A DNA stretch of 64,000 nucleotides from a virus (Duplodnaviria; Caudoviricetes): IMG/VR virus record IMGVR_UViG_3300033076_001012, positions 25,028-89,027 of that record, one strand, 5' to 3'. Shown here piece after piece: positions 7,139 through 60,817 of the stretch (positions are counted from its first letter, which is position 1; every line of letters begins with the position of its first letter). The notes beneath the pieces were generated by a model, which saw only the letters and a list, made by a program, of their open reading frames with translations, ran no database searches and was not told the DNA's origin. The position numbers were made by a program, and so were the translations under genes.

Positions 7139-7416
7139 TGATAGTAGAGTTAAATATATTATCAGATCTTTATTCGCCACCTGTTAAAAATAACAGACAA
7201 AAATTAATAAAAGAAGGTATTGTAACAAAGATGTTAGTTAATACTTCAGATATTAAATATATAGAAGAAACATTCGATAAGAACGGTAAAATACAAAAGA
7301 ATGTTTGCGCTATTAAAATTGATCAGGAAATAATGAGAGTAAAAAATAGTTATAATACTATTAAAAAACTTATTCTTCCTGATAAAATACATACAGGATT
7401 TAAAGAACATAAATGA
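7138..7416 (+). CDS. hypothetical protein
   Basis: ORF track; coupled to neighbours. Confidence 0.65.
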   Translation: MIVELNILSDLYSPPVKNNRQKLIKEGIVTKMLVNTSDIKYIEETFDKNGKIQKNVCAIKIDQEIMRVKNSYNTIKKLILPDKIHTGFKEHK

Positions 7417-43600: not shown

Positions 43601-46600
43601 CAAACTGAAGAATATGCTAAAGTAAGAGAAAGAATAATTACTGAACGTAAAAGTATTATCTCTAAATTAAAAAACGGTGAACGTGTAGTCACTACAATAA
43701 GTGATAAAGGACGTGGTAATTTATTATTTAGAAAAGGTAATAAACAAAGTGTTCCTTTATATAATCAAATAGATGAAAATACAAAAATTCCTTACAGTAT
43801 TTTTAACAATGTTCCTATAAGAGAAAAGGATAAAGTAGGAGGACAAGCTGTTTTTGCTTATATATCAAAAAACAAAGCTACTAATCAAAATACTGTAGTT
43901 ATACCTTCTTTAGAAGATGAATCTCAAAGAGGAGTATTGGAAAAAGATTCTGCTAATTTAGCATCTTTTGGGAAAGTTGGTCAAGTATTTATGTTAGTTA
44001 AAGCTGCTAACGGACAGTGGTCAGGTATTCCTGTATATAGTACACTTGTTACTCCTGAATTAGCAGATGAAATAGTAGATGTTATATCTAATTTAGAACC
44101 TAAATCTGTTAATGATGTTATTAGAGCACTTAATGACTATGTATATGTTACAGGAGAAGATAAAACTACAGGACAGATAAAGGCTGTTGTGGCTAAAGAT
44201 GGATTTGTAGGTTATGTAATAGGCAAAGATAAATATAGTTTAGAAAAAATTAAAACTTCTTCTACTGTTAAAGAAGCTTTTAAGAAAGCGCTCACTACTC
44301 TTAAACAAAACATATCTGTAGCTAACATTAATACTGACGTTGCACAAGAAAAACTAAAGTCTCGTCAAACTCTTGCTACAAATGCTTATACGGATAATGG
44401 TGAATATTTTGTACAACCTTTTGTAACTTTTAAACCTACTGTAGATCCTAAAGATGAAGCTTTAAAAGAACTTGAAGATAATAGAAAACAATCTGCAAGT
44501 TCTGAACAATCTACTACTATCTCCACCTCTCCTAAAAAAGATATAGGTAATGATGGTACAATGGCATTTAAAGAAAAAAGTGTTATTAATAAAGTAACTA
44601 CTCCTGAAGATGTTCGTGCATTTAGACAATGGTTATCTAAAACACTTCCTCAATTTGATCTTACAGTTGAAGACTTTGAGAAATTAAAAGCTCTTAACCC
44701 CAATAGTTGGGGAGCTTTCTCTAATATGATAATTTATCTTAATGAAGGTGCACCTAAAGGGACAGGTTTCCATGAGGCTTTTCATGGAGTATTTAGATCA
44801 TTATTGACATTAGATGAACGTAAGAATGTTCTTGAAATAGCTAAAAAGTTATATGAAGCACCTACTGAACAACGCTTAACTTTCTTAAATGAAAGACATC
44901 CTAATCTTACACGTCAGGAGCTTATAGATTTAGCATATGAAGAAAAGTTAGCTGATGAATATAGTACATATACACAAACATATACAGAATCTTCTTTTAT
45001 TAAAAGATTAGGTACAATTATAGTAAATTTGTTTAAGAAGATAAGTCAATTCTTTAATTTGATTAAAACTTCTAATAGTTCACAATTAGAGATGTTCTTT
45101 AACTCTATAAACCGTGGAAAATTCTCTACAACTAAACCTTTATATACTACTCAACAATTTGATGTAGCATATGCTCCCATAGGTAATTTAAACAATACTT
45201 ATAAAGCAACTAAAATACTTACTATAGCTAATAAGATAGTTGCTGAAAATATGAGGTATTTGGGATTAGGTATATCACAAGAAGATATAACTCTCTCAAG
45301 TTTATTTAATCCTATATTTGCTAATTATGAAAAGATAAGTAAAGATCCCAATCATCCTGGTCAAGCAGCAGCTAATGAATTATTTATACATAGAGCTGAA
45401 GTAGAGAAACAAGTTAAAAAACATTTAAATGGTTTAGGATTTAAATTTAATAATAAAGAAAAACAAATAAAAGATATACCATCTACTATAGATGATACAA
45501 CAGCTAAAGATATAGAACAATTATCTGCTCAAGGAAACCTTACTAAAAGTTTTGGAGATGTGACAAGTATTCCAGGTATGAAGTCTGCATCTACACGTTT
45601 AAAACTATTTCTTGCTGGTATAGAACAATTAGATGAAAATGGTAATGTTAAAAAGGATGATTTAGGTGAAACCTTATATCACGATATGAAAAATCTATAC
45701 TATAGTATAGAAAGAAAGCTTCTAGGTGTTTATTCTTTTGAAGAACAAGTAGCTAAATTAAAAGAATGGGGAAATATACGCCCAGAGTTTAATCAAGTTG
45801 TGGATAAGCTTATAAACAATAGAGAACATGTTATTTCTAAAGAAGAACAAGAAAGAATTAAAAGTGATTTTAAAACCAACTTCTCTAAAGATCAGTTAAA
45901 GTTTATACTTACTAAAGCATCTGTTATAGATGGTGGACTTAAAGTAGAAATTATAGATTCTAATAGAACAGATATTAGAACAGCTTTACAAGATGAATGG
46001 AAAAATGCTTATATATCATCATCAAATAATGATACAGTTGCTGATATATCTGCTGATGGGACAGTAACTACTAACGGTACTGATAAAGCCAAAAAATTAG
46101 CTAAAGATACATTAGAACTTCTTGAGAAAGCTAAAGCTGATCCTAAGAATATTAGAATATTTGATCCGAAAATAATATCTAAACTGTTATCTAAAACTGG
46201 TATTATACTTAGCAATGATACTATAGTTAATGAGTCTAAAATAGATAGTAACTATATATCAATGTTGGAAGACCTCAATACTATAGCAACACATTTAGCT
46301 AAATCTAAAGAAGAAGCTTCAAATAGTGAAATAGCCTATAGAGAAGCATTTAAAAAATTTGCTGATAGAGAAGCAGAAAATCAACTAAGTTTATATACTT
46401 CCTCATTCACTAATGGTGAGAATAAAAATGTTTACAGTATTCAGTTACCAACTTTTGCATCTAAAATGATGAATAAGTTAATAGCTGACAGAAAGACATT
46501 TAAGGCAGAACTTGCTTCTATAAAACAGGATTCGTTCTATGAACATAGTAATCTTCTAAATGCTCTTAATACTAATGATAAATTTAGACAAGAGAAGTTT

Positions 46601-49600
46601 AAACTTGAATATTTTGATGCATTAAAGAATGAAGCTTACGGCTCAGAGGGGGCCGTATATGATAATATACAAGAACGTGACTTCTTAGCTGCATCTATAG
46701 CATTGTTTGAAAATGCTTCTTCTAATCAAGGAACTTCTACCACAGCCCATAAATATGTATATCTTACACCAGCCGATAAAAGTATGGGTATGATAATACA
46801 AGCTATGAGTTATGATGTAAAAACTAAAGATGGTAAATTTGATCATACCTCACCTATACTCAACAATTATGTTAATGTAGTATTATCTGAGATTGAACGT
46901 CTTAGAGGAGCTATTGAATTAAGAGAATTTCATAAAGCAAATCCTGATGTTAACATAGATCATAGATTACGTGAAAACTTCCATTATAAAAAAAAATCCT
47001 CTAAATTTGCATTTGATGGAAGAGCCTTTGAATTTAACTTTATACCGGAAGTAAACTCTCTAATTAAAGAGTTAGATGCTTATATAGTAACTAATCCCAC
47101 AACTACAGCAAAACAAATATTTTCTTTACCTCAATTCAACAGCGGCATTAAAAATGCTATTTATCAAAACTTATCTGCTGAAACAGAGAAAGTGGTTATT
47201 GAAAGTTTAAACAAGGGTATTATTAAAAAAGATGCTGAAGGTAACTATAGTATTTTTGGACTCACTCCAATGACTGAAAAAGGTGCAGAGCTTAACAACG
47301 CCATTGTTCAGAGATTGGCTAAATTTTCTCTTAACCAAAAATTATTTAATATAGAGTTTTCTAACCTTGTTAATGGAGATATAGCAGGGTATAAACCTGG
47401 TGATGAACCTAAAAGGGTGTATCAAGTTGGTAGTTTTGTAACTAATAACAACTTTACTAAAGATACTAAAGTAAAAATATCTATATCTAAAGATATAACT
47501 GAAGGTAAGGATGGAGCTAATAAACTTCCTGAAATGAAAGATTTTGAGGAAATGTTAGAAGCTGATGGTTTATCTAAACAGGAGATTAATCAATACTTGA
47601 AGAAATATAATGATACTAATACAACAGATGCTCAATTACTCATTACTCCAGATTTTTATAAACAATTACATGAATCAAGAGGTACATGGAGTTCCGAATT
47701 ACAAACAGCACATGATATAGCTGAAGGTATTATTAAAAATCCTTCTAAGGAACAATTGAGTAAAGCTTTCTCTTTATTATCAGCTACTAAACCTTTTATA
47801 TTTACAAAAGTATTCAATCAGGATAATAAGAAATGGGAGTATATACAGATAAAATGTGCTACACTAACTCTTTATAATAATATCTTAGAAGATAATAATA
47901 CTTTAAAGAAACTTAAAAATAAGATGTTAGAATCTGGAGCACATGCTCATGCTTTTGAATCTACACTTAAAGCTTTTCTTCCTTTTAGAAAAGAACTTCA
48001 AACAATGTCTTCTGAAGATTTTAACAATACATCTATTATTATAGATGCTGATAGTTTTGGTATTCAACAAGATAACCCTAATCATATGGTTGAAGAAGAA
48101 AACGATGCTCTCAGACAGTTAAAGATGTTAATACCTGGAGCTATAGATCCTAATTTAACATATAACGGTATTAGTGGTAAAGAAATACTTGATAGTATAC
48201 AATCTTTAGAAGCACAAAATATACAAGAGAGTTTGATAGAATTTAAAAGTGAACTCTATAGTAAGGGTCCTAAATTCAAACAAATGATTCAGGAACATCT
48301 CACTAAACGTGGAAGTACTGAAAATGTAGAAAAAGCTCTTGAATTACTTGCTAATGGAGATTTTAGAGGAGCTATGGATGGTCCGTACTCAAGAGATTTC
48401 CAATATCTAATAGGTTCTCTATTTACTAATAGGGTTATTAAACAAGCATTTGTTGGAGGTTCTGCTGTTCAAGCTTCAAGCATGGGTTTTAAATTTAACA
48501 ATTTGACTGAACAACAAAAAGCTGTTGATAATGATATAACTCTTAAAAATCTACAATCTAGTTTAAAATATGTATTTACAATAGATAAAGATGGTAATAA
48601 ACAACTAGCACACATAGAATGTGCTATGCCTGTACCTGATAAGAGATTCTTGAAAGAAGATGGTACACCAATGGATATTAAAGATGTTCCTGAAGAATTA
48701 ATTAAATTAATAGCTTATCGTATTCCTACAGAAGGTTTACACTCCATGTTACCTATTAAGATAGTTAAGTTTTTACCAGCAACCACAGGTAATTATATAC
48801 TACTTCCTGCCGCTACAGTAACTCAACTTGGATCGGACTTTGACTTTGATAAAATATACTTTTTAAGTAAGGCTCATAAAAATTTAGAAGAAATAAAAAA
48901 TGATACTACTATTAATGGTAGAAATAATAAGATTCTTGACCACTATTGGAATTTACTTACAGCTAAAGAAAACTTTAGACACCTTATTAAACCTTCAGGT
49001 TTCGATGAATTAGAAAAATATAAACAAGAGAATTTTCCTGAAATAAAACAGGATTCTAACTTCTTTAGCGGTATAACTCAACGTGCTCTTAAACAAAGAA
49101 ATGGTTTGGGTAAACAACTCAAAGGATTGGCCACAAGAGAAGTATCAGGACATGCTTGGAGTAATATACTAGGTCTTACTACTAAAACCATAAATGTTAA
49201 TGGAGAAGAAGATGCTTCAAAGTTTATAACATTTGATTTTAAAAAGAAAGATAATATATCTGAAAGATATTCTACAAACGGTAAAACATTGATTACAGAT
49301 GAATTAGGAACAATGTTAGCTGCTGTAATGGATGATTTAAAAAATCCTATTCTTGAAGCTCTTAACATTAATCTTGATACGTACCCTGTATGGGCACTTA
49401 TAGTAGAAGCAGGTTTTGGTACTAAAACAGCTTTAGATTTTATCACACAACCTGTACTTAAAGATTTATCTTCTAAACTTGCACTTAATAGAAATAAATT
49501 ACGTGAAGAAGGTGAACCATATCACACTAATAAAACACTATTTGCAGAATATCAAACAAAGAAAACTAATGCCATCAAAGATCTTCTAGATGAAAATGGA

Positions 49601-51220
49601 GTAATAAAACAAGAATATGCTGTAGATTTACAAACTAACTTTAAAATAGAAGATGTTAAAAAGTTAGATGAAATGGTTTTTTTAACAAGTGTTGATACAA
49701 ACAAGTTACTTTATTTTAGAGATTTAGCTAAAAACTTAAATAATGCAAGACCGGCTGAGAAAGCTGTATATTATGCATTTCAATTACAAGTACTAAAGAG
49801 ATTTTCAGATTATTCATCTATTGCTAATGATATATCTGATACTAAAAGGTATTTTACTTTGAATAAAGAAGTAGGGCCTACATTAGAAGATGTCCTCAGC
49901 ATAGATTATTTATATAATAAGATACAAGATTCTAATAATATTCAAGGATTTGATCTATCTAAACTTCCTCAATTAGCTGTGTTAGGAGATGTACATGAAG
50001 AACTTAAAAACTTTTATGACATATATTATCCCTATATGTCAAGTGTTTATCATAATATTAAAGAAACAGTAGCTATTGGTCAAAACAAACCTTTAAATAT
50101 ATTAAATTCTACTATAAGAACTACAATGGATTTATTCATAAGTTCTATGCTTACTCAATTACAACCTAATAGTATATTTGTTACAGATAGAATAGAAAAA
50201 GAGAGGTTAATTAGAGAAGTTCCTCAAATGATCAGAGCTATTAAAAATCCTAAAAATGATGAAAAGTATGCTAATGGTAGATTAAGAAATAGTCCTTTCT
50301 TTCAAAATATAACGGTTAATTATAAAGGAAAGCTTGGAACTATTAAACTTAAAGGAGGAGCGTTGGATGAATCTTTGAAAAATCAAATAAGTGATTCATT
50401 ATTAGGCATTTGGAATCAGCCAAATTGGAAAAATATAGTTGTAGATTTACTAAAATATAGTTATCTTTACGGTGGACATTTCACAGGTATTGGAAGTTAT
50501 CATAATTTAACACCTTTCGAAATATTCGAACAATTAAATTTAATTGATTATAAAAAACAATCAACCAAAGAACTTAATGATAGTAAATTTAATATTACAA
50601 CAGAACAGGTGAATAGAATTAAAGATCAATTAATCAGATCTTTTGCTAAAGATTTAACAAATGTGTTTAAAAAAGATTTATTCTTTGAACATAAAGATAA
50701 CGCCAAAGATAAAAAAATACATGATATTTTAACCACAAGTTTATCTATAGCTAAAGCTACAAAAAATGCAGAAAGACTAACTTATGATGATAATGAAGAA
50801 ATTAAATTTGTAGAATATATTAGAGTGTATCAACCTAAAGGAGCTAATCTAATGTATAAATTAACAGAAACTCAAGGAGAAAATGCTACCTACACTCTCA
50901 CCACACCTCTTGGTAAACGTGGTTTATTAGTTGAAACAGATATATACAATGATATAGAAACATCTATTTTACCTGAGAATAATGAGGGAATAGAAAAAGA
51001 AATAATGGAAAGTGTTATAGATACTAATACACTAAATGATTTACCTGAAGGTGTGGAAGATTCTTGGTTACAACAATTTCCTACTATGGATGATAGAATA
51101 GAAATACAAGACATTACTAATGTAAAAATATCATCAAGTATAGATCAAATATCAAATATAGATATTGTATCTCCTAAAGGAAAACCTTCCATTGATATAA
51201 CCGATGAAAACAATTGTTAA
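40646..51220 (+). CDS. virion-encapsidated RNA polymerase (large multidomain protein)
   Basis: Catalytic GSDFDFDK (DxDxD at 48836-48850), RIPTEGLHSM, TDAQ, zincin-like HEAFH at 44771-44785. Confidence 0.9.
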   Translation: MPDPKKENIGLTDDFFDQMAKEGVKLDLQRYDTGIEPRSLNIPTTSQYDKGFIIPDLESEQKQLDALNEHRENAQGFWDSMGNATVKLALKTATKTAQGISDVLIGIPSAIASRDINQLFDNPISKGITTIEESINEGLPNYNSQKDIDKNILERAFTDLDFWTNDIMSEGVPFLASAYLTGTGMAKVLGPATKALYANQITKANQAAMDAATKGVFSEATANALQEGKLAAQLGKIDQGLISFGARTVESLAEGKQTRDEVFTNLMTGGEQGAPKINPNTNKPYTEQEAKTKAGRAAMATSLLNYWMMPIEYMQAGSWMKTFSNSRKSILKEVGDKLVTDTKLQKFGKEAFKNAITEGYEESFQKGIQDYIKDKYTGNYTDSEIGSVLDIFSPLADITAKSLKNYTTKEGWDAIGQGMILGGLFGAAAETFGSGAKRENEKINKLKQLIKDNDYLKGNISKAVEVQEDGSVKVNDKNITELFKSQLDFERIEGLKQAALLNNDEEAFKTFDNIQFANWAYTHFEAGLGDKLEHQIESIKNLEDPEIAKLNPLTNSEGRILTASELSNRYLEKAKQLEKLYNSVQERYNVPDPIRKQLFEESVIQNETLESLNKLNQKILPLDSKIFNANSLFTAEELRDKPLSADELELKDLKEKQEDYKKTLKDSYKRFADLTDPKKIEEAAAKQKEIIEKHKKESSKKEEEFNTPSQEPAKSENVNKPAESFFEQTPEDVNNTPSSTGTMTQTNPATDKVTGTVTTQSTPTSDNVITNPFSGLTGENVETPAEPTYSIKGETTTTEKVEQESLTKEAVLKPYESSDEEQSEVSTTMTNSTNATISEQEEFSGNTEESIKLGDVGDNKSLAAVPNVAMMHLYNHIVEWKPFGRNSLKRIFKWVHGDDGLVIRDNTSGIDEKALNNLKIGDKVYFQLQTVNNPLNDQRVKSIPENARGLTEGYYEAIAIRKEGSGELLGYVQLPHEAKEGRTPAQTEEYAKVRERIITERKSIISKLKNGERVVTTISDKGRGNLLFRKGNKQSVPLYNQIDENTKIPYSIFNNVPIREKDKVGGQAVFAYISKNKATNQNTVVIPSLEDESQRGVLEKDSANLASFGKVGQVFMLVKAANGQWSGIPVYSTLVTPELADEIVDVISNLEPKSVNDVIRALNDYVYVTGEDKTTGQIKAVVAKDGFVGYVIGKDKYSLEKIKTSSTVKEAFKKALTTLKQNISVANINTDVAQEKLKSRQTLATNAYTDNGEYFVQPFVTFKPTVDPKDEALKELEDNRKQSASSEQSTTISTSPKKDIGNDGTMAFKEKSVINKVTTPEDVRAFRQWLSKTLPQFDLTVEDFEKLKALNPNSWGAFSNMIIYLNEGAPKGTGFHEAFHGVFRSLLTLDERKNVLEIAKKLYEAPTEQRLTFLNERHPNLTRQELIDLAYEEKLADEYSTYTQTYTESSFIKRLGTIIVNLFKKISQFFNLIKTSNSSQLEMFFNSINRGKFSTTKPLYTTQQFDVAYAPIGNLNNTYKATKILTIANKIVAENMRYLGLGISQEDITLSSLFNPIFANYEKISKDPNHPGQAAANELFIHRAEVEKQVKKHLNGLGFKFNNKEKQIKDIPSTIDDTTAKDIEQLSAQGNLTKSFGDVTSIPGMKSASTRLKLFLAGIEQLDENGNVKKDDLGETLYHDMKNLYYSIERKLLGVYSFEEQVAKLKEWGNIRPEFNQVVDKLINNREHVISKEEQERIKSDFKTNFSKDQLKFILTKASVIDGGLKVEIIDSNRTDIRTALQDEWKNAYISSSNNDTVADISADGTVTTNGTDKAKKLAKDTLELLEKAKADPKNIRIFDPKIISKLLSKTGIILSNDTIVNESKIDSNYISMLEDLNTIATHLAKSKEEASNSEIAYREAFKKFADREAENQLSLYTSSFTNGENKNVYSIQLPTFASKMMNKLIADRKTFKAELASIKQDSFYEHSNLLNALNTNDKFRQEKFKLEYFDALKNEAYGSEGAVYDNIQERDFLAASIALFENASSNQGTSTTAHKYVYLTPADKSMGMIIQAMSYDVKTKDGKFDHTSPILNNYVNVVLSEIERLRGAIELREFHKANPDVNIDHRLRENFHYKKKSSKFAFDGRAFEFNFIPEVNSLIKELDAYIVTNPTTTAKQIFSLPQFNSGIKNAIYQNLSAETEKVVIESLNKGIIKKDAEGNYSIFGLTPMTEKGAELNNAIVQRLAKFSLNQKLFNIEFSNLVNGDIAGYKPGDEPKRVYQVGSFVTNNNFTKDTKVKISISKDITEGKDGANKLPEMKDFEEMLEADGLSKQEINQYLKKYNDTNTTDAQLLITPDFYKQLHESRGTWSSELQTAHDIAEGIIKNPSKEQLSKAFSLLSATKPFIFTKVFNQDNKKWEYIQIKCATLTLYNNILEDNNTLKKLKNKMLESGAHAHAFESTLKAFLPFRKELQTMSSEDFNNTSIIIDADSFGIQQDNPNHMVEEENDALRQLKMLIPGAIDPNLTYNGISGKEILDSIQSLEAQNIQESLIEFKSELYSKGPKFKQMIQEHLTKRGSTENVEKALELLANGDFRGAMDGPYSRDFQYLIGSLFTNRVIKQAFVGGSAVQASSMGFKFNNLTEQQKAVDNDITLKNLQSSLKYVFTIDKDGNKQLAHIECAMPVPDKRFLKEDGTPMDIKDVPEELIKLIAYRIPTEGLHSMLPIKIVKFLPATTGNYILLPAATVTQLGSDFDFDKIYFLSKAHKNLEEIKNDTTINGRNNKILDHYWNLLTAKENFRHLIKPSGFDELEKYKQENFPEIKQDSNFFSGITQRALKQRNGLGKQLKGLATREVSGHAWSNILGLTTKTINVNGEEDASKFITFDFKKKDNISERYSTNGKTLITDELGTMLAAVMDDLKNPILEALNINLDTYPVWALIVEAGFGTKTALDFITQPVLKDLSSKLALNRNKLREEGEPYHTNKTLFAEYQTKKTNAIKDLLDENGVIKQEYAVDLQTNFKIEDVKKLDEMVFLTSVDTNKLLYFRDLAKNLNNARPAEKAVYYAFQLQVLKRFSDYSSIANDISDTKRYFTLNKEVGPTLEDVLSIDYLYNKIQDSNNIQGFDLSKLPQLAVLGDVHEELKNFYDIYYPYMSSVYHNIKETVAIGQNKPLNILNSTIRTTMDLFISSMLTQLQPNSIFVTDRIEKERLIREVPQMIRAIKNPKNDEKYANGRLRNSPFFQNITVNYKGKLGTIKLKGGALDESLKNQISDSLLGIWNQPNWKNIVVDLLKYSYLYGGHFTGIGSYHNLTPFEIFEQLNLIDYKKQSTKELNDSKFNITTEQVNRIKDQLIRSFAKDLTNVFKKDLFFEHKDNAKDKKIHDILTTSLSIAKATKNAERLTYDDNEEIKFVEYIRVYQPKGANLMYKLTETQGENATYTLTTPLGKRGLLVETDIYNDIETSILPENNEGIEKEIMESVIDTNTLNDLPEGVEDSWLQQFPTMDDRIEIQDITNVKISSSIDQISNIDIVSPKGKPSIDITDENNC

Positions 51221-54200
51221 TTATGAAATGTAAACTTGATATAAAAAAGGGAATTATTAAAGAAGCTTTAAGAGAAGGTAGTTCAGAAAATATTAAATCT
51301 GTTACTGAAGATACATTAAGAGTATCTAAAGAAAACTTTAAAGCTGATAATCAATCTTTTAGAGTAGCTGAAAATATATCAAAAAGAATTGATAAATTAT
51401 TTGATACACAAATAACACAGATAATACCAGTAACTTCAGGACATGATATTAAAATTACTCCTACAGAAAAACTTATAGATGAGTATTACAATAAATACAT
51501 TGAACAATATAATAAACAACAACAGTTAGAGAGTGGTATTAATAAAGAAGGTGATAGTGAACCTTTATATCAAATTAAACCAACTACCACACATTCTCCA
51601 AATGAAGAATTAAACACAAGACTTAAAGAGTTTGCTAATGTTAATGGTATACCTGTAGAAGTATTTGATACTTTAATAGAAAGACTAGGAGGAGACTATG
51701 TAGCTGCTTATGATACTTTTAACAAAGCTATACTCATAGCTCATAATAAATCGGATATAACCACATTACCTGAAGAAGTTGCTCACATGATAATTGATCT
51801 TTTAGGTAAAGAACATCCTCTCATTAAGTCTTTATTAGTTCAAGTCCAAAAAATGGACTATAAAGATTATTTGAGAAAAGAAGATCCTTCTTATGAGGAC
51901 TTATATAATGGTGATAATGAAATTATGATATTGGAAGTAGCTGGTAAATTACTTAGAGATAAAATAATTAATAGACATTTATCTAATGAAAAAACCAAAA
52001 CTATTTTAGAGAAACTTATAGATAAAATTCTTAAATTTTTTAAGAAAATGTCTTTAAATAGTTTAGATAAAGTTAAAGAATCTATTGATGAAATAACATC
52101 TCAATTAGCTGATAAAGCTTTTAATAAAGAAGTTATAAGAAAAGACTATTATCCAACTATACAAAACCAACCTGCCAATAGATACTTATTTCAAACAAGT
52201 ATAAAAAAAGAAGATTCTCCTATTGAATATAAGGCTCAGTTAATAGTTTTAAAAAGAAGAATTAAGAAATTTGAAACTGCAAGAAAAAAATACGCTCCTA
52301 CAGATGCTGGATATGTTTATTGGGATAAAAAGATAATTGATCTACAAGCTAAGATTGAAAGTTATGAAGAGAGTAAAAATAAAGAAGTACTTATAAAAGC
52401 AGGACTTGAATTACTTAATGGTATAGAAAGCTTTATAGATAAAGTATCTACTGATATAGAACAAGGTAAAAATATTGCTGATATAGATCCTCAAGATATT
52501 GCTTATTCTATTGAAATATTAGATACCTTTAGTAAAATGGAAGGTACTATTGAAACAGCTACACGTTTAAAGAATTTATGGGAACCTATTATTTCTAAAA
52601 TTGCATTAGCTTATGTGAATAAATTTAATACTTCCGGTAAAGAAATAACAGAGGAAGATATTAAATCACAAATACATGATATTGGAGATTGGATAACTAA
52701 ATTAGGTACTGCTACCGATGCTACAGATTATTTAGTTAGAACTGCCGGTAGTTTAATTAAAAGTACACAAGCTGAAATAAGTCGTAATACTAAACATATA
52801 AAAGGAGAGATTGAAGAAGCTGTAAAGAATTTACAGGAGTATCAACAATCTTCAGGCATATCATTAAAAGATATGTATGATATATTTATTCAAGATATAG
52901 ATACTACAACTGTCCTCACAAGACCCTATACTACTGAATACTATAATTTATACAAAGCTTCCTGGAAAGATGGTGAAAAAGGAGCTAAATGGAGAGCTGA
53001 AAATACATATTTTGATCAGGATTCTTCTGAATGGAAACCTTCTAAAAGAGAGTTTATTAACTCTAATTATGAAAGAATACAATCTACTCCTGAACTAAAA
53101 AAGTTCTATGATTTTTATAAAAAAACTATAAATGAAGCTAAATCTAAACTACCCATTAATGTAGCTGAAGATTTTATAGCTAATATACAAGAAAGTGTGT
53201 TTAAAAATATCATAACTTCTGATAAAACTATAGGGCAAAAAGTATTTGGTTTAACTGAACATATATTTGGAGTAAAAACAATCTCCGATAGTGACTTTAT
53301 ATTTGATGAAGAACTATTAACTGATGAATTAAGCCCTAATAAGTTTCAAAAGAGATTGACTGCTAAAGAAAAAACAAGAAATTTAGGTGATGCTCTTTAT
53401 GAGTTTGCTACATTTGCTGAAAGTTATGATAAAATATCACAAGTTTTACCTGTAGTTAAACTCTTAAAAGATCAAATTGCTAATAAAAAATATATATCTG
53501 CTTCGAGACAAAAGATTAGTATTGAAGGAGCTAAAAGTAATGCTCATGCCATGATAACAGCTGCTATGGATATGCAGTTGTTAGGTAAAATGAAAAAAGA
53601 AGATGAGTTTTCTCATAAATGGAAAACTCTCGATGAAAATGGTAATGAGATAACTAAAAGTGTATCAGCAAGTTATATAGGTGATTTATTACTGAGAATG
53701 AACTCTATTCTTAGAATAGGGTTAAGTCCTGCTGGAGCATTATCTAACATATTTATTGGTGATATAGGTAATATAGTAGAAGCGTTTGGAGGAAGATTTT
53801 TTGGAGTTAGTGATTTAAACAAAGCTTCAGGAATTTTCTTTCAAGAGATCTTTAAAGAAGATTCTAAATTAAGAGCTGTACTTGAACAACTTAATCCTTT
53901 GATGGAGTTAGAAGATTATAAAAAACCTGATATTATAGCTGGTAAAAAATTATCTCCTGAGAAATTTATGGAGCTTCTTTACAGCCTTCAATCTAAAGGT
54001 GAGTTATTTCTTCAATCGAGAACTATGATAGCTAACATGCTACATGATGAAGTAATGACTAAAGATGGTAAAAAAATAACTGTATGGGAAGCGTTTGATG
54101 ATAAAGGAAATGTAAGAAAAGATGTTGATTTAAAAGGTTTATCTGAACAAGAATTTATGGATAAGATAAGCCTTAAAGTTAAAGCTATTAACAAATCTAT

Positions 54201-54864
54201 ACATGGTAGGTATAGCTCACAAGATGCTTCCTCTATGCAGCAATTTGTACTATTTAGAATGGCTTCTCAATTTAGAAAGTGGATACCTGCCGCATTAGAA
54301 AATAGATTTGGTATAAAGAAATATTCTAATGACTTAGGTGTAGAAATTGAAGGTAGATATAGAAATACTCTTAAAATGCTAATAGAATTAGCTAAATATG
54401 GAGGAAAATTAAAAGAAGGTAGAGAACTTACGGAACTTGAAAAGTATTCTCTAAAGAAGAATTTGGCAGATGTAATAATATTTGCAGCAACGATGTTCTT
54501 ATATGCCGCTGTTAAAGGAGGAGATGATGATAAAAATGAGAAACGTTTACGTAATCCTTGGATTAAATTAAGTTTAGATCAACTCAATAGAGCTTCTGGA
54601 GATATGTTATTTTTCTTAAATCCTAAAGAATTTAATAATATGGGTAAAAATGCATTACCTGTAACTAAACTGATAGATGATGTATTAACTACTATAACAT
54701 ACATTCCCTATGCTTTTAGTAATGATCCTAAAGCAAGATATAGATCTGGTTCAAGAAAAGGTGAGAATAAGTTTTGGGCTAAGGCAGCAGATATTACTCC
54801 TGGTTTAAATAATATTCATAAGATAAAAAGGGCTTGGAATGACTATGTGTATATGGAATATTAA
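51214..54864 (+). CDS. large ejected/cargo protein (likely start MKCKLD at 51223)
   Basis: Zincin-like LPEEVAH; helical; QFRKW.P.....RFG near the C-terminus; last gene of + block. Confidence 0.7.
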   Translation: MLIMKCKLDIKKGIIKEALREGSSENIKSVTEDTLRVSKENFKADNQSFRVAENISKRIDKLFDTQITQIIPVTSGHDIKITPTEKLIDEYYNKYIEQYNKQQQLESGINKEGDSEPLYQIKPTTTHSPNEELNTRLKEFANVNGIPVEVFDTLIERLGGDYVAAYDTFNKAILIAHNKSDITTLPEEVAHMIIDLLGKEHPLIKSLLVQVQKMDYKDYLRKEDPSYEDLYNGDNEIMILEVAGKLLRDKIINRHLSNEKTKTILEKLIDKILKFFKKMSLNSLDKVKESIDEITSQLADKAFNKEVIRKDYYPTIQNQPANRYLFQTSIKKEDSPIEYKAQLIVLKRRIKKFETARKKYAPTDAGYVYWDKKIIDLQAKIESYEESKNKEVLIKAGLELLNGIESFIDKVSTDIEQGKNIADIDPQDIAYSIEILDTFSKMEGTIETATRLKNLWEPIISKIALAYVNKFNTSGKEITEEDIKSQIHDIGDWITKLGTATDATDYLVRTAGSLIKSTQAEISRNTKHIKGEIEEAVKNLQEYQQSSGISLKDMYDIFIQDIDTTTVLTRPYTTEYYNLYKASWKDGEKGAKWRAENTYFDQDSSEWKPSKREFINSNYERIQSTPELKKFYDFYKKTINEAKSKLPINVAEDFIANIQESVFKNIITSDKTIGQKVFGLTEHIFGVKTISDSDFIFDEELLTDELSPNKFQKRLTAKEKTRNLGDALYEFATFAESYDKISQVLPVVKLLKDQIANKKYISASRQKISIEGAKSNAHAMITAAMDMQLLGKMKKEDEFSHKWKTLDENGNEITKSVSASYIGDLLLRMNSILRIGLSPAGALSNIFIGDIGNIVEAFGGRFFGVSDLNKASGIFFQEIFKEDSKLRAVLEQLNPLMELEDYKKPDIIAGKKLSPEKFMELLYSLQSKGELFLQSRTMIANMLHDEVMTKDGKKITVWEAFDDKGNVRKDVDLKGLSEQEFMDKISLKVKAINKSIHGRYSSQDASSMQQFVLFRMASQFRKWIPAALENRFGIKKYSNDLGVEIEGRYRNTLKMLIELAKYGGKLKEGRELTELEKYSLKKNLADVIIFAATMFLYAAVKGGDDDKNEKRLRNPWIKLSLDQLNRASGDMLFFLNPKEFNNMGKNALPVTKLIDDVLTTITYIPYAFSNDPKARYRSGSRKGENKFWAKAADITPGLNNIHKIKRAWNDYVYMEY

Positions 54865-55901: not shown

Positions 55902-56144
55902 TTAGAAAATTTTAGCCATTAAATAACCTATTCCAGTACCACACATAGCACCTAAAGCATATACTAATCTATCACTTTGTTCACCAAAAGCTATCTTTTT
56001 ACTATTAATTGCCCATGTATAACTAAGAAAAAAAGAACTAATTAACATTAACCAAATTAAATCTTTAGTTATACATTTAACATTAAATGCTACAAGAGAA
56101 ACTTGTAACATGGCAGTAAAGAATAATTTACTTTTTTCTTTCAT
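55902..56144 (-). CDS. small membrane protein
   Basis: Three hydrophobic segments. Confidence 0.65.
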   Translation of the reverse strand: MKEKSKLFFTAMLQVSLVAFNVKCITKDLIWLMLISSFFLSYTWAINSKKIAFGEQSDRLVYALGAMCGTGIGYLMAKIF

Positions 56145-56159
56145 TTTATTTATTTTTAC

Positions 56160-56232
56160 TTAAATTAACTAGTTTTCAATAATTTACTAACAAGTTTTAA
56201 GTTATTTATTTATTTTTTACCAATAGGTAAGG
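56160..56232 (-). ncRNA. DGR spacer 3 (structured RNA downstream of TR3)
   Basis: TTACC-TATT-GGTAA hairpin, then TTAGTA...GAAA element. Confidence 0.7.
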
Positions 56233-56254
56233 TTAAATATTAATTAAAATTAAG

Positions 56255-56336
56255 TAATAAGTACATTCACTGTTCCAATTCAGATTGTAATAGTTAGAAG
56301 AATTATAAACTAACTCACTACTAGAACTAATAGAAA
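56255..56336 (-). repeat. DGR template repeat TR3
   Basis: 82-nt match to 56444..56525; 19 mismatches, all at TR adenines. Confidence 0.95.
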
Positions 56337-56364
56337 GTTGTAATATTTAACCTACTAAGAACAA

Positions 56365-56766
56365 CTAATAATTGTTATCTCTTAGATTTTGATACTCTTT
56401 AATAAAATTCTCGCCAACAAAAGTAGCTATTTCAGAAGTTTTATAAAAAGCACATCCACCGACCCAACACAGAAAGAAATAGCCAGAAGAAATATAAACC
56501 AACCCACCACCAGAACCAATAGAAAAATGCGGAAAATATTTATATTCATTAGTATTTTTCCAATTTGGTTTCCATCCTTGATTAAAATATTTTTCAATTT
56601 GTTTAATTACTCTATAAGGACAACTAAATTGAGGTTCATTTAATCTCCTGCAAACTTCTTTATATGTAGTGCAAGTAAATATATCTTCACCATTTATAAT
56701 ATCTTTTAAGGCATCTACTTCTTTTTGTAGATCATTTAATTTATCTTGTGCTTGTTTTTTATTCAT
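56365..56766 (-). CDS. DGR target protein 3
   Basis: N-terminal coiled coil, W.PNW.N...YKY.P.F, VR3 near the C-terminus. Confidence 0.92.
   Translation of the reverse strand: MNKKQAQDKLNDLQKEVDALKDIINGEDIFTCTTYKEVCRRLNEPQFSCPYRVIKQIEKYFNQGWKPNWKNTNEYKYFPHFSIGSGGGLVYISSGYFFLCWVGGCAFYKTSEIATFVGENFIKEYQNLRDNNY
56444..56525 (-). repeat. DGR variable repeat VR3
   Basis: Encodes SIGSGGGLVYISSGYFFLCWVGGCAF; differs from TR3 only at adenines. Confidence 0.95.
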
Positions 56767-56789
56767 AATATTTGAGTTTGTTTACTATT

Positions 56790-56819
56790 AGCACATCTTA
56801 TAGAGATATAAGATGTGCT
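56790..56819. terminator. perfect 13-bp hairpin between cassettes 2 and 3
   Basis: AGCACATCTTATA-GAGA-TATAAGATGTGCT; function unclear. Confidence 0.45.
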
Positions 56820-56829
56820 TTAGTTTAGT

Positions 56830-56897
56830 TAATTCTGTTCAGCATTTAAGTTACTAAGAATATTGTTTTTATTGTTATCTTTTAGCAATAGCTAAGG
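56830..56897 (-). ncRNA. DGR spacer 2 (structured RNA downstream of TR2)
   Basis: TTAGC-TATT-GCTAA hairpin, then ATTCT-TAGTA...GAAC-AGAAT. Confidence 0.7.
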
Positions 56898-56914
56898 ATG
56901 TATACTATATATAA

Positions 56915-56986
56915 ATAGTAAAAACTAAGTGGATAGTTAGAGTTAGAATAATAGTTATTCACGTAATTCAAAGACTACCTATACTT
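56915..56986 (-). repeat. DGR template repeat TR2
   Basis: 72-nt match to 57085..57156; 18 mismatches, all at TR adenines. Confidence 0.95.
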
Positions 56987-57012
56987 TAGTTATAATATAC
57001 TATCCTACTAGT

Positions 57013-57441
57013 TTATTCTTCTAGCCAAGAATTATATAAAGTTAAAAATTGTTTAGCTATATACTCAGCAGATTTTTTATTTTTAAAGTAAAAACCAAGC
57101 GGAAAGATAGAGAAAGAATAATAGCCACCCACGCAATACAAAGACCACCCAGACCGTTTATTAAATTCAAAATATGGAATATATTTGTATTCATTATAAT
57201 TACCAAAATTGGGTTTCCATTCTTTGTTTTCATTATCAATAAAATTAACAGCTTTGATAATAGTTTTTAATTGTTCACTAAAAGAAGTAATGTTATAAAA
57301 TTCTATCCCTAATACTTTACAAGCATCTCTTAAACTTTTAATATCCTCTACTTTATATTCAGGAGCATTTATTATTTCTTTTAACTTATCGACTTCATAT
57401 TGTAAATCCTGTAATTTCTTTTGGGCTTCTGTTTTATTCAT
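57013..57441 (-). CDS. DGR target protein 2 (start MNKTEAQKK at 57441)
   Basis: ATG 4 nt after the RT stop; paralog of targets 1 and 3; VR2. Confidence 0.92.
   Translation of the reverse strand: MNKTEAQKKLQDLQYEVDKLKEIINAPEYKVEDIKSLRDACKVLGIEFYNITSFSEQLKTIIKAVNFIDNENKEWKPNFGNYNEYKYIPYFEFNKRSGWSLYCVGGYYSFSIFPLGFYFKNKKSAEYIAKQFLTLYNSWLEE
57085..57156 (-). repeat. DGR variable repeat VR2
   Basis: Encodes RSGWSLYCVGGYYSFSIFPLGFYF; differs from TR2 only at adenines. Confidence 0.95.
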
Positions 57442-57445
57442 AAAT

Positions 57446-58387
57446 TTATGTTTTAATATATTTGTTTTTAAGATTGATACCGTTACAATGATTAATCCAG
57501 CCATTATAACTAGCAATAGATTTATTATTCTTATTATATTTAATCATTTTAATGAAATTCTTTTTAATTGTTTTTCTAAGTTTAATATGTGTAGAATAAC
57601 TCACATAACCAACAAAATCTATTCCTCTATTTTTGATGGGAAATATTTGATAATTACTTAATTCTAATTTTAGATTATACCAAAGATAATTTTTTATATT
57701 ATTTAATATAATTCTTAATTCATTCTTATCATTACCTAATATAACTATATCATCGCAATATCTAAAATATTTAAGTTTTAATTCTTCTTTAATCCAATGA
57801 TCAAAATAAGTTAGATAAAAATTAGCAAAGAATTGTGAACAATAATTACCTATTGGTAAACCAACATTACTATCTATTATTTCAAATATTAAATTAAGTA
57901 AATTTCTATCTTTAAATTTTCTTAATAACAATTTTTTTAATATTTCATTATTAATAGAAGGATAGAATTTCTTTATATCTAATTTCAAACAGTATTCATA
58001 ATTTTTAACATCCTTATTTAAATCTTTTAAACAAAGATGTATACCTCTCTTTTTAATACATGAATAAGTTTGTTTTATAAAACATTTTAAAAATATAGGT
58101 TCTAATATATTTAATATTGCATGATGACATATCCTATCAGGATAATAAGGAAGTCTATATATTTCTCTTATTTTACCTTTTTCTTTAACTTTAAAAATAG
58201 TATAATTAGAGGTTTTATAAGATTTATTTAATAAAACATGATGTAAATTAATTAAAAGATCTTCTTTATTTCTATCAAATTTCCTTACACCATGTTGTTT
58301 AGACTTACCCTTTCTTGCCTTTTTTTCAGCTAATTTAATATTACCAATGCTACAAACTTGTTGATATAGATTACCTACTCTTTTCAT
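57446..58387 (-). CDS. DGR reverse transcriptase (313 aa from MKRVGNLY)
   Basis: LPYYPDRICHHAI, LKLDIKKFYPSI, GLPIGNYCSQ (DGR-type GxxxSQ), YFRYCDD, GIDFVGY. Confidence 0.96.
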   Translation of the reverse strand: MKRVGNLYQQVCSIGNIKLAEKKARKGKSKQHGVRKFDRNKEDLLINLHHVLLNKSYKTSNYTIFKVKEKGKIREIYRLPYYPDRICHHAILNILEPIFLKCFIKQTYSCIKKRGIHLCLKDLNKDVKNYEYCLKLDIKKFYPSINNEILKKLLLRKFKDRNLLNLIFEIIDSNVGLPIGNYCSQFFANFYLTYFDHWIKEELKLKYFRYCDDIVILGNDKNELRIILNNIKNYLWYNLKLELSNYQIFPIKNRGIDFVGYVSYSTHIKLRKTIKKNFIKMIKYNKNNKSIASYNGWINHCNGINLKNKYIKT

Positions 58388-58394
58388 AGTCTTT

Positions 58395-58470
58395 ACAATT
58401 AACACTTTTTCCACAATTAAGGTACTAAAGTATTTGTAAATATTCTGTTGTTTTTTGGCAATAGCCAAAG
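58395..58470 (-). ncRNA. DGR spacer 1 (structured RNA between TR1 and RT)
   Basis: TTGGC-TATT-GCCAA hairpin, then AATACT-TTAGTA...GAAAA-AGTGTT. Confidence 0.7.
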
Positions 58471-58498
58471 TTAATAATAGATTTATAAAGTAAAGAAA

Positions 58499-58564
58499 AG
58501 TAGACTCATTTGAATTAGAATTCCAGTTATTATCATAATGGAAAGACTAACTAGAGCTAGAATT
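58499..58564 (-). repeat. DGR template repeat TR1
   Basis: 66-nt match to 58659..58724; 15 mismatches, all at TR adenines; begins inside the target-1 stop codon. Confidence 0.95.
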
Positions 58565-59027
58565 AATTATTAACTTGATAAGAAAAATAATCTATATAAA
58601 TATGATTAAACTTTTTACAAGCATCTTGTAATAAATTATCTGCTTTAAAATGTTGACAAGCAGACCCACGTGAACTAGAAGTCCAGCCACTACCACAATG
58701 GAAAGACCAACCAGAGCCAGAACTAAATTTATAATAAGGTATATACTTATATATACTTGAATTATTCCAATCTAAAATAGTTTTTTCATTATAAGCTTGT
58801 ACTATTTTAGGGATAAGAGAACACGCATTTAAATATCTTTCTCTTTTATTTTTAGTATTTAAAGGAAAAATAATATAATCATTTATATCTTCTTCTAATA
58901 CATCAAAAACATCTTCTAAAGTTTGAATTCTATCTATTATATCTTCAGGAGAATTTATAATTTTTTCAAGTTTATCAATTTCTTTTTGTAAATTTTTTAT
59001 TTGCTTTTTAGCTTCTTCTTTTTTCAT
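58563..59027 (-). CDS. DGR target protein 1
   Basis: MKKEEAKKQIKNLQKEIDKLEKIIN N-terminus, DWNN...YKY.PY, VR1. Confidence 0.92.
   Translation of the reverse strand: MKKEEAKKQIKNLQKEIDKLEKIINSPEDIIDRIQTLEDVFDVLEEDINDYIIFPLNTKNKRERYLNACSLIPKIVQAYNEKTILDWNNSSIYKYIPYYKFSSGSGWSFHCGSGWTSSSRGSACQHFKADNLLQDACKKFNHIYIDYFSYQVNN
58659..58724 (-). repeat. DGR variable repeat VR1
   Basis: Encodes SSGSGWSFHCGSGWTSSSRGSA; differs from TR1 only at adenines. Confidence 0.95.
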
Positions 59028-59061: not shown

Positions 59062-59460
59062 TTAATAATTTATTACTTTAGCAAAACCTTCCTTTACAAG
59101 TTGTTCATTTAAACAAATTTCTTGACCTTTTGAATCAATATAGTATATTTTAGCTAAATATCTACCATATTTTTCTCTAATATCCTGAAAGGATTCTACC
59201 TTAATTTGAGAATTAAGTGGTATAATCTCAGCAACTTTTAATCTTATAGAAAATCCTTGTTTTTTGGAAGAACCTTTTATTTCAGGAGTATTTATTCCAA
59301 ATAACCTGAACACTTGTAAAACATATGTTTTAAAACCTAAATCTACTAATATCTCAAGAGTATCTCCATCTATAATTTGAGATATACTACATCCTTCATA
59401 AATTCTGGGTCTTTTAGGATGAATAGGAAAAGTAATGTTTTTATCAATTTTTTTACTCAT
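59062..59460 (-). CDS. thermonuclease (SNase-like) family protein
   Basis: IIDGDT...VDLGF......RL.GINTPE...EKYGRYLA.IY...LNE.LVKEG.A. Confidence 0.9.
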   Translation of the reverse strand: MSKKIDKNITFPIHPKRPRIYEGCSISQIIDGDTLEILVDLGFKTYVLQVFRLFGINTPEIKGSSKKQGFSIRLKVAEIIPLNSQIKVESFQDIREKYGRYLAKIYYIDSKGQEICLNEQLVKEGFAKVINY

Positions 59461-60034: not shown

Positions 60035-60817
60035 TTATTTTTTCAAATAAGCTTTTAGACTTGTTTGAAAGAATATTCCACAAGATGAACATTGCATCCT
60101 TTTTTTAATTGCTCCTGTTGCAGATATTCTATTACCATTACTGATAGTAGAATCTGAACCGCATTTAGGACAAGAACAATCATCTTTACCTTTTAATATA
60201 CCAATATGGATTTTAGGTTTGCTATAAAAAGAAAGTTTATTATATACTTTTTCAAGCAATAAAACATCTCTTTTACAATAATGAACCATTTTCTTCATAG
60301 CATTTTCATCGTTATTTAAAACAATGTTTTTCCATAAATCATATCCTGTTTTTAATTTACCGCCAAATCCAAAGAATTTAGCAATATAGTCAAGTCTGTT
60401 ACTATTAAATTTAAATAATTTTCTACTTATTTTTAATGTATCCACACTTACAAATTCAGGTAGTGATTTAACTCCATGATACAGCGCTCTGGTTCTCAAC
60501 CATTTAATGTCAAAATGATCTCCGTTATGAGCAACTATTTCATCAGCTGTATTTAAGATTTTTACAAAATCTAAAACCATTTGTTTATCATCACCTTTTG
60601 ACCATTCAAAACTATGAACTTTAGATTCATGTTCCCATTTATAACAAATGCAGATTATTGCTCTCTCTTTCAATATACTATCATGTGTTATATTTAAATC
60701 TCTACCAACATTCCATGTAAAAACTACATTTGGTGATGTTTCAATGTCAATAAATAACCTTTTTATGTTTTGTTTAGAAAGCTTCTTTTTTAAAGCTTTC
60801 TGCATTTTAATATTCAT
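60035..60817 (-). CDS. RNase H-like 3'-5' exonuclease with C-terminal Zn ribbon
   Basis: FIDIETS, VAHNGD.FD, YC..DV.LLE, CPKCGS...CSSCG. Confidence 0.88.
   Translation of the reverse strand: MNIKMQKALKKKLSKQNIKRLFIDIETSPNVVFTWNVGRDLNITHDSILKERAIICICYKWEHESKVHSFEWSKGDDKQMVLDFVKILNTADEIVAHNGDHFDIKWLRTRALYHGVKSLPEFVSVDTLKISRKLFKFNSNRLDYIAKFFGFGGKLKTGYDLWKNIVLNNDENAMKKMVHYCKRDVLLLEKVYNKLSFYSKPKIHIGILKGKDDCSCPKCGSDSTISNGNRISATGAIKKRMQCSSCGIFFQTSLKAYLKK

Follow-up and report, generated by a model that had tools for sequence, protein, structure and literature searches.

RT-17-like RNA elements follow each of the three template repeats of a phage diversity-generating retroelement

The 64,000-nucleotide (64-kb) stretch of DNA analyzed here, hereafter the window, is part of the 89,027-bp IMG/VR virus record IMGVR_UViG_3300033076_001012 (estimated to be 94% complete) and carries a diversity-generating retroelement (DGR) at 55.8 to 59.1 kb on the minus strand. 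The DGR consists of one reverse transcriptase (RT) gene and three tandem cassettes, each of which is made up of a small target open reading frame (ORF) with a C-terminal variable repeat (VR), followed by a template repeat (TR). Downstream of every TR we identified an element that, as judged by homology, is a diverged copy of the catalogued RT-17 RNA motif. It is likely that these copies act in cis, one for each TR, to recruit the RT and probably to prime cDNA synthesis, and that all three cassettes are active. This reading draws on homology, covariation of the structure, a positional rule, and adenine-only differences between TRs and VRs. Coordinates of the DGR elements are positions in the window, on the minus strand.

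RT-17-like elements downstream of three template repeats

Besides the RT gene (57446..58387; 313 aa; Pfam RVT_1, E 2.2e-17), the DGR was recognized by three TR/VR pairs with adenine-only differences and by the location of the VRs at the 3′ ends of the target ORFs. Target gene 1 (58563..59027; 154 aa), whose N-terminal DNA has paralogous counterparts in targets 2 and 3, carries at its 3′ end VR1 (58655..58728), an ungapped match to TR1 (58495..58568) at an offset of +160 with 16 mismatches, all of them at TR adenines. Target gene 2 (57013..57441; 142 aa; phrog_11581, E 3e-4) contains VR2 (57085-57157), paired with TR2 (56915..56987; offset +170), and target gene 3 (56365..56766; 133 aa; phrog_11581, E 1e-4) contains VR3 (56444-56525), paired with TR3 (56255..56336; offset +189). 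The TRs were delimited by repeat comparison with the respective VRs. In ungapped comparison of the cores, adenine versus non-adenine mismatches numbered 16/0, 18/0, and 19/0 in cassettes 1, 2, and 3, respectively. The adenine-only differences in VR2 and VR3 imply that TR2 and TR3 have been reverse-transcribed and homed, and from these sequence patterns all three cassettes appear to be active or recently active.

The spacer RNA copies that follow the TRs span 58385..58474 (copy 1), 56812..56901 (copy 2), and 56151..56236 (copy 3). Copy 1 ends at the RT ATG, and the distance from the RT stop codon to the downstream copies 2 and 3 is 545 and 1210 nt, respectively. A preliminary description of this DNA had reported a hairpin with a TATT loop 22 to 28 nt after each TR. 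The three hairpins, TTGGC-TATT-GCCAA (58468-58455), TTAGC-TATT-GCTAA (56895-56882), and TTACC-TATT-GGTAA (56230-56217), were all found where it had placed them on the minus strand, each with a UAUU loop and then an A-run. The spacing holds approximately, ranging from ∼19 to 30 nt according to where TR/VR homology is taken to end. The pattern TTNNCTATTGNNAAAA occurs three times in the 64 kb, against 0.07 occurrences expected from shuffles.

RT-17 (Rfam RF03020) is one of 19 “RT” motifs found near RT genes (Weinberg et al. 2017, NAR 45:10811; PMC5737381). In that study, RT-10 was shown to be the TR-RT spacer of BPP-1 and other motifs were speculated to serve DGRs, with RT-17 being given no function (Weinberg 2017, PMC5737381). 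The Rfam scan of the window matched copies 2 and 3 to RF03020 at 28.2 bits (56811-56899) and 23.4 bits (56152-56234), respectively, and copy 1 had no RT-17 match at E<=10 with the Rfam covariance model. A covariance model (R1) was built from three RT-17-positive loci and rebuilt from 88 matches (R2). R2 scored copy 1 at 50.4 bits (E 7.6e-7), copy 3 at 39.0 bits (E 1.7e-4), and copy 2 at 31.9 bits (E 0.005 in 662 kb). Within the 89-kb record, only these three copies were retrieved at E<0.01; the next match (18.2 bits, E 0.46) is at chance level.

All three copies align over the full R2 model (positions 1-88), including a 4-bp hairpin and a 3-bp helix that encloses an inner hairpin. Their layout is that of the Rfam alignment, i.e., CC-U, 4-bp hairpin, AAAA, linker, a short helix around UGGUA plus a mini-hairpin plus GAA, and AAAGCA. 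The unpaired nucleotides of RT-17 are kept as well (ACC-U before the first hairpin, P1; the A-run; U-R-G-U-A; G-A-A; and AAAG(C/U)A), the ACC preceding P1 being ACU in copy 1 and UCC in copy 2. Since they belong to a catalogued family, the spacer elements are not new in kind. They share with RF03020 the architecture, the conserved nucleotides (CC-U, A-run, ∼20-nt linker, and AAAGCA), and the RT clade, but differ from it in having UAGUA instead of UGGUA, a UAUU loop, a very low GC content, and three copies per RT gene, two of which are downstream of the RT.

The window RT has 484 relatives in IMG/VR, the closest being 60 to 69% identical in RT, whereas the nearest annotated RTs are those of crAss-like gut phages (48 to 56% identity). 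The DGRs of crAss-like phages (cr52_1, NC_055888; crAssphage LMMB, PMC7290462) hold the nearest annotated RTs, and these phages also resemble the one described here in genome size and low GC. A metagenome search for closer RT relatives reached at most 63% identity and revealed multiple motif copies in 0 of 80 loci. RT-17 was above the Rfam threshold in 5 of 16 scanned RT relatives (57 to 62% identity), ending at the RT start. With R2, relatives were scanned in 80 IMG/VR loci (L001-L080) and 80 metagenome loci, and the motif was placed directly upstream of the RT in nearly all of the former and in 75 of the latter.

For each motif match, a TR was sought by comparing the preceding 170 nt with the locus for an adenine-tolerant repeat. 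In ∼70 loci, a TR ends 5 to 29 nt before the motif and the VR lies 150 to 660 nt upstream, with 9 to 22 adenine mismatches versus 0 to 2 others between the two repeats. The motif sits once, after the TR and before the RT start, in ∼150 relatives. In about half of loci L001-L080, a distance of 570 to 620 nt separates the TR from the VR upstream of it; the reason is that a single TR is preceded by two phrog_11581 paralogs in tandem, as exemplified by the 151- and 125-aa paralogs at L019:2946-3790. In L019 and similar relatives, the ORF that separates VR from TR was considered as a candidate Avd gene and rejected; it is the second target paralog (phrog_11581).

Extra motif copies downstream of the RT were found only in the AT-rich subclade nearest the window. 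L001, L003/L004, and L009 each have one extra copy with its own adenine-only TR/VR pair (22/0, 16/0, and 16/0, respectively). L009 has yet a third RT-17-like copy (7161-7243; 33.8 bits); no TR/VR pair could be detected upstream of it, and it may represent a cassette that has decayed.

A comparison among the three cassettes of the window yielded 78 to 83% identity in P1 and the A-run, 50 to 55% in the target ORFs, and 36 to 52% in the TRs. The divergence of ORFs and TRs against the conservation of P1 and the A-run indicates an old duplication in which the RNA element is the best-conserved cassette part. Such a history could also have left copies 2 and 3 as inert relics of a duplicated target-TR-spacer(-RT) unit, with just the RT-adjacent copy 1 being functional. 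The three cassettes are clearly paralogous tandem duplicates, copies 3 and 2 score below copy 1 (39.0 and 31.9 versus 50.4 bits), and the orphan copy of L009 illustrates an element devoid of TR/VR. Nonetheless, we regard this explanation as quite improbable. Despite their age, the duplicates retain P1 and the A-run with differences that are compensatory, none of the three copies has lost the family-invariant G-U-A and G-A-A, the differences of VR2 and VR3 from their TRs are confined to adenines, and the same coupling of TR and motif recurs in L001, L003, and L009. Homology, covariation, conservation, and adenine-only TR/VR differences therefore sustain the earlier proposal that each cassette has its own RT-recognition RNA and that all three are under selection.

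Approximately 20% of multi-VR DGRs have been reported to have more than one TR (PMC6642488). The locus described here resembles those of multi-TR DGR surveys (Yan et al. 2019, PMC6642488) in that a single RT is shared by more than one TR, each with VRs, but differs from them in that every module of TR and spacer has a small paralogous target gene to itself. Whether there is one spacer RNA per TR was a question not addressed in these surveys (PMC6642488). In the part of the literature that we searched, no paper was found to link RT-17 to TRs or to describe one spacer RNA per TR.

Structure of the spacer RNA and comparison with BPP-1

P1 is a hairpin of 4 to 5 bp, after which ∼5 A occur in an invariant run. 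The linker between P1 and P2 hardly varies in length (22 to 24 nt), and P2 is an extendable helix that encloses an internal loop (5′ U-R-G-U-A / 3′ G-A-A) and a small capping hairpin, P3. The element finishes with the conserved tail AAAG(C/U)AAA (family-wide, AAAG(C/U)AAAG). In copy 1, these parts correspond to P1 58467-64/58459-56 (loop UAUU), A-run 58456-51, P2 58434-28/58407-01, UAGUA 58427-23, P3 C58422/G58412, and GAA(A) 58411-08. Copy 2 has P1 at 56894-91/56886-83 (loop UAUU), P2 at 56861-57/56836-32, UAGUA at 56856-52, and GAAC at 56840-37; the equivalents in copy 3 are P1 56229-26/56221-18 (loop UAUU), P2 56196-90/56173-67, UAGUA 56189-85, and GAAA 56177-74.

P2 is the second stem of the preliminary description, which had it enclosing TTAGTA-N-GAA. 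Each of the three copies has this stem and, within it, UAGUA...GAA, but the register given for copy 1 was one base off, the homologous one being AAUACUU/AAGUGUU rather than AATACT/AGTGTT. TTAGTA-N-GAA alone is not enriched in the window (17 found versus 19.9 expected); it counts solely through its fixed position inside the second helix.

Covariation was assessed on 78 distinct sequences and conservation was counted on 76. Ninety-seven percent of the cells are paired, and all nine modelled pairs show double (compensatory) changes. The covariation score was 0.659, compared with 0.21 for shuffles and <=0.064 for slid partners, although the alignment was fitted to the model, which favors this score. 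In an independent mutual-information scan, the top seven column pairs were all among the nine modelled pairs and no pseudoknot was detected. A pseudoknot-type ACC:GGU pairing between the ACC before P1 and UGGUA was rejected, as it does not covary and ACC co-occurs with both GGU and AGU. The compensatory stem changes that had been noticed among the window copies (G-C/A-U in one position, G-C/C-G in the adjacent one) are real and extend to the whole family, where the same two P1 pairs covary (GC 56, AU 21; CG 65, GC 11). P2 also extends past the G.A or U-A position, 4.0 of 5 positions being paired in cognate arms versus 2.8 in non-cognate ones. Minimum free energy (MFE) folds recover P1 and P2. 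In the internal loop, G75, U76, and A77 are invariant in 76/76 sequences and G123, A124, and A125 are conserved in 74-75/76.

U-G pairs are frequent in P2 and P3 (e.g., UG 26 at pair 72-127), and the element is therefore read as RNA on the minus strand. Short inverted repeats could in principle extrude, and a DNA hairpin or cruciform has a role downstream of the VR in BPP-1; by this token, the hairpins of the window might act on DNA as cruciform or hairpin retrohoming signals, like the inverted repeat flanking the BPP-1 VR. We give almost no credence to this possibility. The elements follow TRs, not VRs, and the frequent G-U pairs of P2 and P3 become A-C mismatches on the complementary strand. 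Moreover, the conserved unpaired sequences are strand specific, and an RNA family model fits the element as a whole.

To our knowledge, the BPP-1 RNA is the only DGR RNA solved so far. The sequence signature of a sarcin-ricin (bulged-G) motif, UAGUA / GAA(A/C), is located between P2 and P3 in all three window copies, and copy 1 reads AGUA-C...G-GAA, as the ribosomal sarcin-ricin loop does. By its sequence, U(A/G)GUA...GAA is thus a sarcin-ricin-type internal loop. In a 2026 JAR3D survey, loop 3 of RT-17 and loop 8 of RT-10 (BPP-1) were strong sarcin-ricin matches, and in solved RT-10 structures the motif is seen to accommodate an inserted arginine from a protein close by (PMC13085918). Cryo-electron microscopy of BPP-1 revealed the bRT-binding element as a long stem with two interior loops and flipped-out bases that touch bRT, and when it is deleted neither RT binding nor cDNA synthesis occurs (bioRxiv 10.1101/2023.10.23.563531). 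Given the sarcin-ricin match shared with RT-10 and the binding of bRT by an interior-loop stem in BPP-1, the P2-loop-P3 unit is, by analogy, most plausibly an RT-docking element.

The BPP-1 spacer (Sp) RNA further resembles the window RNAs in having a tetraloop-capped stem-loop after the TR, a stem with a sarcin-ricin-like internal loop, and possibly also a segment that pairs with the TR 3′ end, which in BPP-1 is the template:primer duplex TR117-129:Sp47-56. DGR RNAs of the BPP-1 type prime cDNA from the 2′-OH of an internal adenosine. In BPP-1, cDNA is primed in cis, Sp 47-56 pairing with TR 117-129 and Sp A56 priming at TR G117 (bioRxiv 10.1101/2023.10.23.563531). The two RNAs differ in that the window has no RT-10 match at E<=10, in their lengths (∼85 nt in the window versus ∼140 nt in BPP-1), and in the location of the primer strand, which is 3′ of the RT-binding stem for the window candidate and 5′ of it in BPP-1. 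P1 followed by the A-run may possibly be an A-minor element, by analogy with the stem-loop-plus-adenosines of the BPP-1 cPRT Stop.

Tail complementarity to the template repeats

In each cassette, the tail of the spacer RNA is complementary to a segment of the TR that precedes it. The tail of copy 1, GUAAAGA (58396-90), can form 7 Watson-Crick pairs with UCUUUAC at the 3′ boundary of TR1 (58490..58496), a candidate pairing only; that of copy 2, AAACUAA(AG) (56826-18), is complementary to UUAGUUU of TR2 (56928-22); and that of copy 3, UUAAGUAA(AAA) (56163-53), considered as UUAAGUAAAAA, forms 10 of 11 pairs with the TR3 boundary UUAUUACUUAA (56260-50). Boundary matches of 7 to 9 nt were also found in the relatives L001, L003, L006, and L009. 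Contiguous tail-TR pairs averaged 7.5 in cognate versus 6.5 in non-cognate combinations (p ∼0.014; n=10), and 4.96 versus 4.67 in a larger set (p ∼0.001; n=71). In cassettes 1 and 3, TR/VR homology stops at the tail-complementary segment, which fits a cDNA start just upstream of this segment. In the majority clade, the tail GCAAAGG faces the TR sequence CCUAUGC, and A occurs as the first base of the tail only if the TR carries U (3/3 in L012, L074, and L047, versus a background of 11/60).

From these elements we propose that, in the RT clade of the window, RT-17 would be the DGR “spacer” RNA, transcribed immediately downstream of the TR. Its sarcin-ricin-bearing stem-loop most likely docks the RT, as in BPP-1, and by the same analogy the RNA would work in cis on the TR that it follows. 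The tail, complementary to the 3′ boundary of its own TR, is our candidate for a primer strand; the template:primer duplex formed in this way would determine where the cDNA starts, a point that is only suggestive. We infer RT binding, priming in cis, and the identity of the primer from these comparisons; the priming role that the preliminary description ascribed to the spacer RNA stays at this level, its sole candidate primer-template duplex being modestly supported statistically. With three different TRs, each with its own paralogous target, every TR would have to carry its own spacer copy, which would explain why two copies lie downstream of, and away from, the RT.

Several observations weigh against this interpretation. 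All three copies are under the Rfam gathering threshold of 40.4 bits, and copy 1 is missed altogether by the Rfam model. Single-sequence folding energies are unremarkable (z = -2.3 for copy 1) and, for copies 2 and 3, weak (z = -0.8 for both), and we relied on homology and covariation because such energies are weak at 23% GC. In this AT-rich sequence, cognate tail-TR pairing is just modestly above non-cognate pairing (7.5 versus 6.5 contiguous pairs), and given this modest excess the tail is kept as a candidate primer strand only. Furthermore, the tail-complementary segment of cassette 2 is inside the TR/VR homology, which runs on past it, and in the GC-richer majority clade the tail fits the VR (CCTTTGC) better than the TR (CCTATGC). 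A BPP-1-like “cPRT Stop” duplex is not evident, since the linker shows no cognate-specific pairing with either the TR end or the sequence upstream of the TR. Specifically, a BPP-1-like duplex of the A-rich linker with the TR 3′ end was rejected (-2.57 kcal/mol in cognate versus -2.70 kcal/mol in non-cognate combinations), and so was pairing of the spacer with the region upstream of the TR as an analogue of cPRT Stop, which had no cognate excess even with the TR2/TR3 leader included. Neither was Avd found; PF05635 is unmatched in the 89-kb record, where a remote homologue could escape a sequence search, and neighboring ORFs have no Avd-like Pfam or PHROG match. For this reason, the BPP-1 analogy is incomplete and P1 would not be an Avd-binding stem in the BPP-1 sense. 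Finally, in most loci the ribosome-binding region of the next gene coincides in part with the tail, whose conservation could be partly translational.

This overlap also raises the question of whether the element is chiefly a structure of the 5′ untranslated region (5′-UTR) that governs translation or mRNA stability of the following gene, rather than a part of the reverse transcription machinery. The motif ends 0 to 6 nt before the RT start codon in nearly all loci, its tail contains a Shine-Dalgarno-like AAAGG, and an ATG closely follows copy 3 as well as the extra spacer copies in L001 and L003. However, copy 2 is followed by a 13-bp hairpin and lies ∼45 nt before the next start codon, and the invariant partner of the motif is the upstream TR, whereas the downstream gene varies (RT, target paralog, or small membrane protein). 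The absence of a U-tract after P1 means that the element is not an intrinsic terminator, and the equivalent RNA of BPP-1 (RT-10) has a demonstrated role in cDNA synthesis. An exclusively or mainly 5′-UTR function is consequently improbable in our view, and a dual role of the element, in reverse transcription and as a 5′-UTR, is possible. Intrinsic terminators were discarded more generally in the scans for terminators and promoters, whose hits were at shuffle level.

Copies 1 and 3 offer the tail another partner. In their MFE structures, the tail pairs with the linker upstream of P2, forming a 7-bp outer helix after a UAA bulge (58435-58441 with 58392-58398 in copy 1; 56195-56201 with 56158-56164 in copy 3); copy 2 has no such option. 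Tail-linker and tail-TR pairings exclude each other, so that, in these models, copies 1 and 3 might conceivably alternate between a closed and a primed state.

A further relationship was noticed at the VR. An invariant CGC-CTT-TGC closes the VR in ∼58 relatives of higher GC content; the T at the third, synonymous position of the Leu codon stands in place of an A in the TR. The final 7-mer of the VR, CCTTTGC, is the exact reverse complement of the tail GCAAAGG, and in L047, where the VR has CTC, the tail has G, so that the VR base and the tail change together. The VR end of these relatives seems to mark the 3′ limit of information transfer or a tail-VR interaction. That the tail is both the primer strand for cDNA and a guide marking the 3′ end of the target is a speculative, rather unlikely idea. 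If it were true, cDNA-attached RNA would help to locate the VR, as an RNA-based equivalent of the initiation of mutagenic homing (IMH) sequence; alternatively, the VR end would be regenerated from the primer, as happens with a retroviral primer-binding site.

The novelty of these results is that RT-17 is tied to DGR template repeats, that its conserved loop is read as a sarcin-ricin motif, and that copies of the TR-plus-RNA module flank the RT gene on either side in an AT-rich subclade; the identification of a candidate primer-template duplex is suggestive. RT-17, which has been in Rfam since 2017 without a function, thereby gains a link to DGR templates and a covariation-supported structure with a sarcin-ricin loop. 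A crAss-like phage with one RT, three TRs, and a copy of the RNA after each TR suggests that this RNA has to adjoin the template it serves. The locus can be seen as a natural experiment in which several TRs led to duplication of the RNA with each TR instead of its being kept only by the RT, as cis-priming predicts. A TR plus an RNA of ∼85 nt would then be a portable module, and one so compact and apparently Avd-less is of practical interest for the reprogramming of DGRs toward targeted mutagenesis at several loci. It also provides a second, very different system in which to study how DGR cDNA starts and how it finds the VR.

Sequences surrounding the cassettes

At 56790-56819, a perfect 13-bp hairpin (AGCACATCTTATA...TATAAGATGTGCT) separates spacer RNA 2 from the beginning of target 3. 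The AAAGCAC tail of copy 2 contains the first bases of its 5′ arm, and the hairpin was flagged as terminator-like on the plus strand only. This hairpin could be a processing or termination site between cassettes 2 and 3. On the other side of the third cassette, an 80-aa hydrophobic ORF (55902-56144, minus strand; phrog_6764, unknown function) begins 5 nt past spacer RNA 3.

Directly upstream of the DGR, the minus strand encodes a staphylococcal nuclease (SNase)-like endonuclease (59062-59460; Pfam SNase, E 1.5e-8; phrog_452), and further upstream an RNase H-fold 3′-5′ exonuclease with a C-terminal zinc ribbon (60035-60817). Two very large ORFs on the plus strand (3524 and 1216 aa; 40646-54864) converge on the DGR block and fit a structural or RNA polymerase module of crAss-like phages.

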